DNA of 14,328 nt from a virus (taxonomy: Duplodnaviria > Heunggongvirae > Uroviricota > Caudoviricetes). The stretch is from the IMG/VR virus record IMGVR_UViG_2526164690_000029, one strand, 5' to 3'. Position 1 is the first letter of the stretch; each line of letters begins with the position of its first letter. A program made the position numbers and the translations under genes. A model generated the notes under the pieces. The model made no database searches. It was not told where the DNA came from and was given only the letters and a program-made list of their open reading frames with translations. Of the stretch, positions 1,047 to 14,040 are shown one piece after another.

Positions 1047-1341
1047 ATGAAAAAAATGTTGTTTTCTGCCGCTCTGGCAATGCTTATTACAGGATGTGCT
1101 CAACAGACGTTTACTGTTGGAAACAAACCGACAGCAGTAACACCAAAGGAAACCATCACCCAATCACTTCTTCGTTTCGGGAATTGGACAGGAGAAAACT
1201 GTTGATGCAGCCAAAATTTGTGGCGGCGCAGAAAATGTTGTTAAAACAGAAACCCAGCAAACATTCGTAAATGGATTGCTCGGTTTTATTACTTTAGGCA
1301 TTTATACTCCGCTGGAAGCGCGTGTGTATTGCTCACAATAA
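1047..1341 (+). pseudogene. bor: bor/iss-family serum-resistance lipoprotein, frameshifted
   Basis: MKKMLFSAALAMLITGCAQQTFTVGNKPTAVTPKETIT (lipobox LITGC) matches Bor/Iss, then the frame breaks near 1150-1160 (cccaatcac versus expected cccatcac). The Bor C-terminus KTVDAAKICGGAENVVKTETQQTFVNGLLGFITLGIYTPLEARVYCSQ continues in the +1 frame to the stop at 1339..1341. An alternative Iss-like start (MQDNKMKKM) is at 1032. Confidence 0.8.
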
Positions 1342-1351
1342 TTGCATGAGT

Positions 1352-1369
1352 TGCCCATCGATATGGGCA
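1352..1369. other. Hairpin between convergent bor and Rz; possible weak bidirectional terminator
   Basis: Perfect inverted repeat tgcccat-cgat-atgggca (7-bp stem, 4-nt loop) directly after the Rz stop and 10 nt after the bor stop. No clear U-tract on either strand. Confidence 0.3.
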
Positions 1370-1372
1370 GCT

Positions 1373-1835
1373 CTATCTGCACTGCTCATTAATATACGTC
1401 TGGGTTCCTTCCAGTTGTTTTTGCATAGTGATCAGCCTCTCTCTGAGGGTGAAATAATCCCGTTCAGCGGTGTCTGCCAGTCGGGGGGAGGCTGCATTAT
1501 CCACGCCGGAGGCGGTGGTGGCTTCACGCACTGACTGACAGACTGCTTTGATGTGCAACCGACGACGACCAGCGGCAACATCATCACGCAGAGCATCATT
1601 TTCAGCTTTCGCATCAGCTAACTCCTTCGTGTATTTTGCATCGAGCGCAGCAACATCACGCTGACGCATCTGCATGTCAGTAATTGCCGCGTTCGCCAGC
1701 TTCAGTTCTCTGGCATTTTTGTCGCGCTGGGCTTTGTAGGTAATGGCGTTATCACGGTAATGATTAACAGCCCATGACAGGCAGACGATGATGCAGATAA
1801 CCAGAGCGGAGTATAATCGCGGTTACTCTGTTCAT
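1373..1835 (-). pseudogene. Rz: Rz i-spanin, frameshifted near codon 9
   Basis: ATG at 1835 overlaps the endolysin stop (ATGA) and reads MNRVTAII before hitting a stop after 24 codons. The rest of Rz (…[49 protein letters not shown]…EQCR) is intact in another frame; the difference from lambda looks like one extra A in gattatactcc. Confidence 0.75.
1432..1614 (-). CDS. Rz1: Rz1 o-spanin lipoprotein, embedded in the Rz +1 frame
   Basis: 60-aa [63 protein letters not shown], matching lambda Rz1 as recalled, with lipobox VVGC and a proline-rich tract. Confidence 0.85.
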
Positions 1836-2329
1836 TGCTGACCCCACAAACAGATTTCACGCTCAATCTCACGACGAGTCATGAGACCTTTCCATTGCTT
1901 ACCGCCAGCATATGTCCAGCGACGTAGCTGATCACATGCGCCTTTGATATCGCCCTGGTTTATTTTGCGAAGAAGCGTCGATGTTCTGAAATTGCCAGCA
2001 CCCACGTTGTAAACGAATGAGTAAAGAGCGCCGCGCGTTGTTTCCGGTATATCGACTTCGATGTACGGGTTAATTTGTCTGGCGACAGTGGCAAGGTCTT
2101 TATTCAAGAGTGCTTTGCATTCTGCTTTGGTATACGTTTTACCGGGAATGATGTCTTTTCCGGTGTGTCCGTGACATACAGTCCATACGCCAACGATATC
2201 TTCGTATGGTATGTAGCTGACACCTTCCAGGCCATCGTCACCACTCGGACCAGTGATGAGCACAGACGCTATGGCAACAGCCCCACCACCAATAGCAGCA
2301 GCAACAGCCTTGCGTAATGATGGCGACAT
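1832..2329 (-). CDS. R: SAR endolysin, T4-type lysozyme (phage 21 R / DLP12 RrrD-like)
   Basis: 165-aa ORF with a weakly hydrophobic Gly/Ala-rich N-terminus ([21 protein letters not shown]) typical of a signal-anchor-release domain, followed by a lysozyme domain. Resembles phage 21 R; the stop overlaps the Rz start. Confidence 0.9.
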
Positions 2330-2544
2330 TATTCACCTCTCGCAGCCTTACGCTTATCTTCTTTAATCTTGAAATAAAGGTTTGTCAGATACGTCAGCAA
2401 GCCAAACACCAGGCTACCCAATACGCCTATTGCCACCCACTGGGATGGGGAGACTTTGTCCAGCAACTGCAGTAGCCAGTATCCCGTCCCCACCGCTGAC
2501 GTGGTGTATGACACACCTGTTGTTATTTTTTCCATCTGGTACAT
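2329..2544 (-). CDS. S: Pinholin (phage 21 S-type) with dual-start motif
   Basis: [71 protein letters not shown] (71 aa) resembles the S21 pinholin; Met1 and Met4 give the holin/antiholin pair. The stop overlaps the endolysin start by 1 nt. Confidence 0.85.
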
Positions 2545-12166: not shown

Positions 12167-12373
12167 TCAACTCACAAAACGCCACGCCATTTTTGCTACA
12201 GCGACAGGCGCAACACCGATAATCACCCACAGGAAAATGCTACCGAAAAGCACACCAACCAGGTCTTTACCTTCGCCTACCAGCCGGACAAAACTGCTGG
12301 CAACCACAATGAACGTCGCCACCATCCACATAGCACCGAGAATCCTCAATGCAGAAAAAATCAACTCAACCAC
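12167..12373 (-). CDS. Small hydrophobic protein (68 aa, about two predicted transmembrane segments), inserted between tR2 and ninB
   Basis: GTG start at 12373 preceded by GGGGGAGAG, which is the ninB ribosome-binding site in lambda. Translates to MVELIFSALRILGAMWMVATFIVVASSFVRLVGEGKDLVGVLFGSIFLWVIIGVAPVAVAKMAWRFVS. Absent from lambda at this position as I recall. Confidence 0.5.
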   Translation of the reverse strand: MVELIFSALRILGAMWMVATFIVVASSFVRLVGEGKDLVGVLFGSIFLWVIIGVAPVAVAKMAWRFVS

Positions 12374-12388
12374 GATTTACTCTCCCCC

Positions 12389-12420
12389 AAATAAAAAGGC
12401 CTGCGATTACCAGCAGGCCT
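12389..12420 (-). terminator. tR2: tR2-like intrinsic terminator
   Basis: Minus strand reads AGGCCTGCTGGTAATCGCAGGCCT followed by TTTTTATTT, matching the lambda tR2 hairpin downstream of ren as recalled. Confidence 0.7.
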
Positions 12421-12445
12421 GTTATTAGCTCAGTGATGTAGATGG

Positions 12446-12736
12446 TCATCTTTTAACTCCATATACCGCCAATACCCGTTTCATCGCGGCACTCTGGCGA
12501 CACTCCTTAAAAATTAGGTTCGTGCTCATCTTTCCTTCCCGTTCTTCCTTGGTAGCAAACCGGTAATACACCGTTCGCCAGACCTTACCTTCGATAACCA
12601 GAAGACCTGCCCGTGCCATTTTAGCCGCGGCCTGATTTATGCTGGTTACTGTTGCGCCTGTTAGCGCGGCAACGTCCGGCGCACAGAAGCTATTATGCGT
12701 CCCCAGGTAATGAATAATTGCCTCTTTGCCCGTCAT
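12446..12736 (-). CDS. ren: Ren protein
   Basis: MTGKEAIIHYLGTHNSFCAPDVAALTGATVTSINQAAAKMARAGLLVIEGKVWRTVYYRFATKEEREGKMSTNLIFKECRQSAAMKRVLAVYGVKR, near-identical to lambda Ren as recalled; the start overlaps the P stop. Confidence 0.9.
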   Translation of the reverse strand: MTGKEAIIHYLGTHNSFCAPDVAALTGATVTSINQAAAKMARAGLLVIEGKVWRTVYYRFATKEEREGKMSTNLIFKECRQSAAMKRVLAVYGVKR

Positions 12737-13434
12737 ACACTTGCTCCTTTCAGTCCGAACTTAGCTTTGAGTTCTGCGATCTTCGCCAGAGCCTGTGCAC
12801 GATTTAGAGGTCTACCGCCCATGACAGGAAGTTGTTTTACTGGTTCAGGGATCGCCTCACCACGGTTAATTCTCGCAGTCATATGGACAAGCTCATCTGC
12901 GGCCTTACGGCGTAATTCCGCATCAGTAAGCGCATTGGCCCGCATGTTCTGATACAGGTTGGTAACCAGCCAGTAGTGCGCGTTTGATTTCCACGGATAA
13001 GACTCCGCATCCGGATACAGGCCTCGCTTCCGGCAATACTCGTAAACCATATCAACCAGCTCGCTGACGTTTGGCAGTCCGGCGATAACGGATGCTTCTT
13101 CCCGGCACCATGCAACAAACTGCCCGGGTGATGGCAGGAATGGTCGATTCTGCCGACGGGCTACGCGCATTCCTGCGTTAACCTGTTCCATTGTGGTGAT
13201 CCCGTTTTCCCGGAAAGCCAGAACCCACTGGCGGCGGATTTCGTTCAGTTCGTTCTGGTCACGGTTAGCCAGGCTCGCCGGGAAAGTTGCCAGTAACTGG
13301 CTGAACACACCGTTGATGATCTGCGCTACCTGTTGTACCTGCGGCTTTTCGTCGTACTGTTCCGGCATGTTGTTGGCGATCCGACGCATCTGCTCACGGT
13401 CAAAGTTAACCATCTGTGCGGCGATGTTTTTCAT
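12733..13434 (-). CDS. P: Replication protein P (DnaB helicase loader)
   Basis: 233-aa ORF MKNIAAQMVNFDREQMRRIANNMPEQYDEKPQVQQVAQIINGVFSQLL…, essentially lambda P as recalled. Confidence 0.95.
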   Translation of the reverse strand: MKNIAAQMVNFDREQMRRIANNMPEQYDEKPQVQQVAQIINGVFSQLLATFPASLANRDQNELNEIRRQWVLAFRENGITTMEQVNAGMRVARRQNRPFLPSPGQFVAWCREEASVIAGLPNVSELVDMVYEYCRKRGLYPDAESYPWKSNAHYWLVTNLYQNMRANALTDAELRRKAADELVHMTARINRGEAIPEPVKQLPVMGGRPLNRAQALAKIAELKAKFGLKGASV

Positions 13435-14040
13435 AAATCCACCCCGTAAATCCAGTCAGTGTTTGTCAGGTCGAGTTTTGGTTTGCTGGCTGTCACGCCT
13501 GCCTGTTGCTTGTTACGGTTGATTTTCGAGCTGGGTCCACTTGTCGCGGAGTTTGGCCGGACTCAGCACGTTACCGGACCAGAAGTTGTCCTGGCAGGCC
13601 CAGCGGAAAAGCACACACATATCGCGGTGGTTACGTCCGTCACGTTCACGCATCAGGCGGATATCGTTAGCCCACCCTGCAAAATTCGGTTTTCTGGCTG
13701 ATGGTGCGATGGTCTTCACCATGTCAAACATCCACTCTGCGGCGGTCAGGTCTTCTGCTGTTCCCCACTTGCTGCCGCTCTGAATTGCAGCATCCGGTTT
13801 AACCACAGAAAGATCGTTTTCTGGCTGGTCAGAGGATTCGCCAGAATTCTCGGACGAATAATCTTTTCTTTTTTCTTTTGTAATAGTGTCTTTTGTGTCC
13901 CCCTGTTTTGAGGGATCTCCCTCATTTTAGGGGAACCTCCCTCGTTTTGAGGGATGCACCATTCTGAGATGTTTTTATTTGGTCCAAACATGCCGCCTTG
14001 CTGCTTGATAATATTCATTCTGACGAGTTCTAACTTGGCT
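13430..14040 (-). pseudogene. O: Replication initiator O, 3' two-thirds only: 5' end cut off by IS10, with further frame breaks in the iteron region and near the C-terminus
   Basis: AKLELVRMNIIKQQGGMFGPNKNISEWCIPQNEG and VVKPDAAIQSGSKWGTAEDLTAAEWMFDMVKTIAPSARKPNFAGWANDIRLMRERDGRNHRDMCVLFRWACQDNFWSGNVLSPAKLRDKWTQLE match lambda O but lie in different frames. A premature stop follows an extra A in gaaaatcaacc at about 13520. The IS10 outside end abuts the O coding sequence at 14040/14041. Confidence 0.85.
13861..13956. other. ori: lambda-type replication origin inside O: iteron repeats (13898..13956) plus AT-rich tract (13861..13895)
   Basis: Minus strand carries ATCCCTCAAAACGAGGGA, TCCCCTAAAATGAGGGA and ATCCCTCAAAACAGGGGGA followed by an A/T-rich stretch. 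Only three iteron-like units are present, where I recall four in lambda. Confidence 0.65.

Follow-up and report, generated by a model that had tools for sequence, protein, structure and literature searches.

The closest finished relatives of the DNA described here are lambdoid prophages in Escherichia coli strains that make Shiga toxin (Stx), or STEC, of the O111/O26 type, which were the best matches, at 99.9% identity, when the whole stretch was compared by megablast with 5,426 complete E. coli genomes. Nearest among them is the homologous prophage at 4,852,366-4,866,440 of E. coli O111:H11 strain 88.0502 (NZ_CP077567.1), and strain 2013C-4538 (NZ_CP027582.1) carries an intact version of the prophage region. 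The stretch itself (IMG/VR record IMGVR_UViG_2526164690_000029; 14,328 nucleotides, hereafter the window) belongs to a lambdoid prophage and extends from cos through the lysis, Q and nin regions to P-O. An insertion of IS10 in replication gene O and the loss of three iterons have truly left this prophage unable to replicate, and the nine 1-bp insertions and deletions (indels) that lie on top of this damage are very probably consensus errors of a draft assembly.

The window is the entire contig AIGH01000054.1 of a contig-level assembly of E. coli DEC8C (O111:H-), a draft from 2012. Over its first 11,675 bases it matches that contig (assembly GCA_000249835.2) without a difference, and 'Escherichia coli DEC8C' is the strain name on the record retrieved by exact protein look-up of a 100-amino-acid Rz fragment. 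DEC8C is an O111:H- isolate from a calf in Scotland (PMC2211750). Each end of the contig falls in a repeat: on the left this is the cos/Nu1 region, on the right it is IS10. Drafts of the DEC collection, the subject of 2012 work by Hazen and colleagues, were reportedly made by 454 Titanium sequencing.

Frame breaks were called by base-by-base alignment to the prophages of 88.0502 and 2013C-4538, in which all the affected genes are intact (the 'moron' and O in 2013C-4538). As the closest finished relative, 88.0502 aligns with the window in one piece over 249-14328, at 99.9% identity over 14,080 bp; the differences comprise five substitutions, one additional AGAAAT repeat unit in the window and nine 1-bp indels, none of which is present in 88.0502. 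At 13032 it is 88.0502 that deviates, not the window, and strain E200086 has all three dam substitutions in a dam that is intact. The changes private to the window in its 14 kb are nine indels versus one substitution (792). Mutation-accumulation lines of E. coli yield ten substitutions per small indel, or five in lines without mismatch repair (bioRxiv 10.1101/346874); the binomial probability of at least nine indels in ten events is 9e-9 at an indel fraction of 10% and 4e-6 at 20%, well outside what chance would give. Meanwhile, 454 Titanium reads contain insertions (0.54%) and deletions (0.36%) at roughly ten times the frequency of mismatches (0.088%; PMC3116506). The 9:1 indel excess is thus the reverse of the spontaneous E. 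coli spectrum and matches that of pyrosequencing errors.

Both IS10 insertions and a 67-bp deletion in O are shared with 88.0502, a genome sequenced independently and finished, and are therefore inherited and real; the two prophages have in common both IS10 sites, both target duplications, the iteron deletion and the gene order. A complete IS10 (ISVsa5; 1,329 bp, plus strand) occupies 3703-5031, with ends CTGATGAATCCCC and GGGGATCTCTCAG and an intact 402-amino-acid transposase (WP_001339197.1). It is flanked by a 9-bp target duplication, AGCATGATA, at 3694-3702 and 5032-5040, and the empty target is seen in 2013C-4538. Length (about 1,329 bp), terminal sequences, intact DDE transposase and 9-bp duplication all agree with IS10 of the IS4 family, and the element is 100% identical to both IS10 copies of 88.0502, one of which sits at the same site. 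A second IS10, oriented like the first, begins at 14041 and is cut off by the end of the contig, so that 288 bp of it (14041-14328, plus strand) are present; of its 9-bp duplication, AACTTGGCT, the window has the left copy (14032-14040), and 88.0502 has both. This O::IS10 junction occurs in only one of the 5,426 complete genomes, that of 88.0502.

The O of lambda contains four iterons, and the intact O of the relatives of this prophage (13347-14285 in 2013C-4538) contains six. Alignment to the latter places the 67-bp deletion at the junction 13916/13917, within the repeat, where it removed iterons 3-5; what the window retains (13899-13955) is iterons 1 and 2 plus a hybrid of 3 and 6 made by the deletion. 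Since 67 is not a multiple of three, the deletion alone shifts the O frame, and the O of 88.0502 is labelled 'frameshifted; incomplete' in RefSeq. In both the window and 88.0502, O is broken by IS10 and short of 67 bp, as expected of a defective prophage. The first-pass annotation, made from the letters of the window, had set the 9-bp IS10 duplication and a missing iteron apart from indel errors. The duplication is indeed a real change of another kind; so is the iteron loss, which amounts to three of six iterons rather than one. For the break in O, its 1-bp indel and altered iteron region were both found again, and the second IS10 at 14041, which that annotation did not name, also cuts the gene. 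Its suggestion that decay and assembly error may both apply holds: decay is real in the IS10 insertions and the lost iterons, and error very probably explains the 1-bp breaks. It had named comparison with independent assemblies of the same strain as a check; in the independent assembly used here, from the clonal relative 88.0502 rather than from the same strain, all the large lesions recur and the indels are missing.

The distribution of the indels among finished genomes was examined with eight 81-bp probes centred on the nine indels and run against the finished records that carry each segment. For seven of these probes, which cover eight of the indels, no finished genome that carries the segment has the window allele. 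The bor/iss lipoprotein gene (1047-1341, plus strand) has an added A at 1162 (A to AA), loses its frame past codon 38 and stops at codon 53, and its allele was found in none of 3,251 finished records. The Rz spanin gene (1373-1835, minus strand) has an added T at 1812, outside any homopolymer, which leaves the embedded Rz1 (1432-1614) unaffected; the insertion is in none of 4,211 finished records, where the best full-length match is still one gap off, and it is missing from every other contig that has the same 100-amino-acid Rz fragment and covers 1812. The gene for the 247-amino-acid hypothetical 'moron' (3410-5490, minus strand) is split by IS10 and has in addition lost a C at 5259-5261 (C4 to C3; 0 of 682 records). 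The gene for the NinI-type Ser/Thr phosphatase (6363-7027, minus strand) goes from T7 to T6 at 6627-6632 and loses its frame past codon 133 (0 of 1,126 finished records).

The next break lies on the opposite strand to these minus-strand genes, in an AT-rich hypothetical gene of 590 codons (8736-10507, plus strand), which a change from A7 to A6 at 9618-9623 splits into open reading frames (ORFs) of 323 and 275 amino acids. The gene for the phage Dam methyltransferase (11190-11718, minus strand) has an added G at 11419, outside any homopolymer, together with substitutions at 11304, 11541 and 11557; no full-length match among 1,562 records has the +G. In ninB (11715-12159, minus strand) the frame is broken by single-base deletions at 11838 (T3 to T2) and, 4 bp further on, at 11842 (T4 to T3), and among 648 records the window allele was absent, the best match being 97.6% identical with both gaps remaining. 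Finally, the 3' remnant of O (13431-14040, minus strand) has gained a T at 13523-13526 (T3 to T4; 0 of 3,059 records), besides the 67-bp deletion and the truncation by IS10 at 14041. Ten products encoded by the window were also looked up exactly in a collection of 15 billion proteins: the frameshifted products of bor, dam, ninB and the moron were not found there, and the ninI fragment led to other error-prone assemblies and not to the source contig of the window. The seven frame breaks listed in the first-pass annotation (bor, Rz, moron, ninI, dam, ninB and O) are all present, within about 20 bp of where it had put them; its list lacked the break at 9618 and the second deletion in ninB. Homopolymer indels, which it read as the mark of long-read error, do make up seven of the nine changes, leaving 1812 and 11419 outside runs. 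Its appeal to sequencing error is supported as far as the artefact goes, and the platform for DEC8C was probably 454 rather than long reads.

Recurrence of a miscall in other assemblies was examined for the ninI allele. The identical 81-mer with T6 is found at ten loci in nine assemblies, namely drafts of the 454 era (DEC-series and others, 2011-12) and one-contig unfinished assemblies; it sits in unrelated prophages, and one genome has two copies. Finished genomes read T7, including O157:H7 at the same prophage site. By comparison of these assemblies, the T6 of ninI is best read as a recurrent miscall. Counted by run length across the window, runs were affected in 2 of 484 3-mers (0.4%), 2 of 165 4-mers, none of 76 5-6-mers and 2 of 6 7-mers. 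When two sister DEC drafts (L008 and L012) are compared with L024, a finished genome of O157:H7, there are between 8 and 11 indel events per 13.7 kb, most of them under-calls in runs of 6-8 nucleotides. The same comparison shows 13-14 substitutions, and several of the indels are common to non-DEC assemblies; real lineage differences thus blur this control, which lends weak support. The multi-copy IS10 (about 1.6 kb in total) has no indels where about one is expected, and is uninformative. As a separate observation, a public 5.7-Mb one-contig assembly (GCA_026134585.1, JAOWNT010000001.1) contains the same prophage with many genes shattered: most of its comparable homopolymers of at least 5 nucleotides are one base longer than in the window, with some 34 such changes in about 11 kb, a clear case of systematic homopolymer error in a deposited genome.

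The comparisons show which contig this is, that the large lesions are shared and that the indels are private, and they give the spectrum of these; that the indels arose during sequencing, and that the platform was 454, we infer. Several points weigh against this. The artefact call is drawn from comparison rather than from DEC8C reads. Strain 88.0502 is a close relative and not the same strain, differing to the left of 249 and in the dam patch, so mutations specific to the DEC8C lineage are possible in principle; furthermore, the prophage is already dead, so no selection would oppose real frameshifts. The absence of any affected run among the 76 of 5-6 nucleotides is slightly odd for errors driven by run length, and the insertions at 1812 and 11419, outside runs, are compatible with stray errors without being specific to them. 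The site at 9618 can really vary: A6 is read in two of the 251 finished records, the O145:H28 outbreak strains RM12761 and RM13516, whose assemblies combine 454, Illumina and PacBio reads. It is also read in two Logan contigs, which have none of the window's other indels and differ from it at 9557.

The alternative that fares best concerns the dam-ninB cluster, where three substitutions and three indels fall within 540 bp. The dam haplotype (11304-11557) consists of three transitions that are absent from the 99.9% relatives, and two of the three match Stx-phage-like prophages (L005 and L014); this suggests either a short recombination patch between prophage dam genes or a mixing of consensus sequences. 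The cluster could be the product of reads from paralogous prophages merged into one consensus and not of random per-base errors, which we consider unlikely but deserving of weight. Two of the dam substitutions (11304G and 11557C) match the dam of another lambdoid prophage type, the complete haplotype exists elsewhere and relatives have 1-5 copies of the segment per genome; yet the +G and the two -T changes are in no paralogue examined and could not be created by merging alone, and the haplotype could equally be a real recombination patch. If reads of a further prophage copy were mixed in, they may have spoiled the consensus across dam and ninB; merging would then contribute to the artefact rather than compete with it as an explanation. 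As the sole cause of the cluster, merging of paralogues is rejected, the examined paralogues being free of those indels.

It is improbable that most of the indels are artefacts while one or two of the changes in long runs, A7 to A6 at 9618 and possibly T7 to T6 at 6627, are real slippage. Such a mixture would accommodate the A6 of the two O145:H28 genomes and the two Logan contigs, and at least 1,000 public contigs have the downstream ORF of 275 amino acids as a protein in its own right. However, 88.0502 and 249 of the 251 finished records read A7, the Logan contigs with A6 differ at 9557 and so belong to another lineage, and 7-nucleotide runs, two of six of which are affected, are where a miscall is most expected. 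A still bolder proposal makes the A7 tract at 9618 a slippage-prone, phase-variable switch that is OFF (A6) in DEC8C, with the same allele arisen independently in O145:H28; this we regard as very improbable. That all or most of the nine indels are real, neutral decay in the DEC8C lineage after the loss of O is hardly credible: the prophage is truly defective (O::IS10, the 67-bp iteron deletion and IS10 in the moron), so that frameshifts would be neutral, and seven of the nine indels lie in mononucleotide runs that are natural slippage sites too (10.1101/346874), but nine indels to one private substitution invert the spontaneous spectrum, a clonal relative with the rare IS10 junction has none of them, eight of the nine alleles are in no finished genome, two insertions lie outside any run and the T6 of ninI recurs only in draft or unfinished assemblies. 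Programmed frameshifting and functional split genes were rejected for eight of the nine indels, at which unshifted alleles are universal and no relative has the shifted one; at 9618 alone the shifted allele, A6, was found again (2 of 251 finished records).

Consensus error laid over real damage thus remains the preferred account of the window. Insertion of IS10 in the moron, insertion of a second IS10 in O and recombination between iterons, with the loss of 67 bp (three of six iterons), are real and make the prophage defective; on that account, consensus calling in the draft would then have added seven homopolymer under- or over-calls and two stray single-base insertions, none of them bacterial mutations. 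If the nine bases were corrected, bor, Rz, ninI, the 590-codon gene and ninB would be full length and identical to widely distributed proteins, and dam would be full length and differ by its substitutions alone. The moron would still be interrupted by IS10, and O would still have its IS10 and 67-bp deletion.

Taken at face value the contig has eight broken genes, when in fact two (O and the moron) plus the origin are damaged. Pseudogene counts, scores of prophage 'intactness' and rates of decay taken from such drafts would be inflated several-fold. The comparison also offers an inexpensive way to sort lesions without reads. A structural marker that is rare, such as this IS10 junction (1 of 5,426 genomes), leads to the finished genome that has it too; the differences that still stay private can then be classed as indels or substitutions. 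As biology, a lambdoid prophage of bovine O111 E. coli that IS10 has inactivated and deprived of replication is ordinary, with nothing novel about it.

The RefSeq gene order, read from 88.0502 and 2013C-4538, is cos, ylcI, iss/bor, RzpD (Rz), RrrD (endolysin), class II holin, three small ORFs, the 247-amino-acid moron, Q, NinI-type Ser/Thr phosphatase, NinG, HNH, the 590-amino-acid hypothetical (on the other strand), NinE, Dam, NinB, a 68-amino-acid ORF, Ren, P and O. On the intact reference copies Pfam recognises Lambda_Bor, Phage_lysis, Phage_holin_2_1, Metallophos, Dam, NinB and Phage_rep_O, and the RefSeq annotation of relatives, Pfam and the cosN at 282 together establish the lambdoid order and modules (cos, bor, Rz/Rz1-R-S, Q, nin, ren, P and O). 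When the reference genes were mapped onto the window, only the indel-bearing genes translated differently from the reference: Q, P, ren, ninE, ninG, HNH, the endolysin, the S21-type holin, DUF3927 and the IS10 transposase are identical in protein sequence. The intact genes include the endolysin (1832-2329) and the S21-type class II holin (2329-2544; Phage_holin_2_1), antiterminator Q (5743-6366), ren (12446-12736) and replication gene P (12733-13434), all on the minus strand; the P protein has exact matches on about 1,000 public contigs. Throughout the Rz1 region (1432-1614) the nucleotides agree with those of 88.0502. The reading of Q, P, ren, ninE, Rz1, endolysin and pinholin as intact in the first-pass annotation is therefore upheld.

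At the left end, positions 1-293 (minus strand) hold the 5' end of a lambda-type Nu1 (start about 105), cosB and cosN (282-293), with the cosN motif AGGTCGCCGCCC at 282. Window positions 1-700 match a second prophage of 88.0502 at 99.1%, and over 1-248 (lambda-type cosB and the 5' end of Nu1) the two differ only by a 1-bp deletion (A5 to A4) at 122. The match to the main 88.0502 prophage, which has another terminase small-subunit module, begins at 249. Two readings of the change at 249 are available: a genuine mosaic junction beside cosN, or a chimera formed where the contig ends. In 88.0502 the large terminase subunit (1-869 of its prophage locus L001, outside the window) is a pseudogene with an internal stop, and the prophage lineage therefore carries more real damage beyond the window. 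The two IS10 copies, in the same orientation, bracket about 9 kb that comprises Q, the nin region, the 590-codon gene, dam, ninB, ren, P and the O remnant, an arrangement also seen in 88.0502. The bracketed segment could be deleted by homologous recombination or moved as a composite unit.

The region of the 590-codon gene (8362-10800) has a GC content of 29-37%, compared with 45-55% elsewhere, and its product has no Pfam match. Upstream of the gene, in the intergenic region, lies a tandem array of the hexamer AAATAG (8362-8420; 9.8 copies), the copy number of which varies by strain, with one copy fewer in 88.0502 and two fewer in JAOWNT010000001.1. The gene looks like a foreign moron with a variable upstream repeat. 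Its 275-amino-acid ORF (9680-10507) stands as a separate protein on those public contigs, at least 1,000 in number, and the exact 323-amino-acid N-terminal half on two; in another locus (L013) the gene has a different 1-bp deletion, at 9629. In many assemblies, therefore, the gene appears to be interrupted or shortened by something other than A6.

Set beside known systems, the window resembles drafts of the pyrosequencing era and unpolished long-read drafts with false pseudogenes in its indel excess of about 9:1, comparable to that of 454 Titanium reads (PMC3116506), in its run-length miscalls (seven of nine), in the recurrence of T7 to T6 in other drafts against T7 in finished genomes, and in having 7-mers as the runs most often affected; unlike such drafts, it has two insertions outside homopolymers and no affected run of 5-6 nucleotides. 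It is like the 88.0502 prophage in its 99.9% identity, both IS10 copies with their duplications, the 67-bp deletion and gene order, but that prophage has no 1-bp indels, one fewer AAATAG repeat, another dam haplotype and another terminase/cosB module left of 249. The region in NZ_CP027582.1 is likewise 99.9% identical in the shared parts, and differs in having full-length iss/bor, RzpD, phosphatase, 590-amino-acid ORF, Dam, NinB and O, no IS10 in the moron or O, and six iterons. Finally, with cryptic lambdoid prophages of the DLP12, Rac and Qin type the window has in common an insertion sequence in an essential replication gene, a deletion in the origin and the retention of lysis and Q modules. 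Unlike in those prophages, its decay is recent and light: once the damage it has in common with 88.0502 is set aside, its genes match exactly those of relatives that appear intact.

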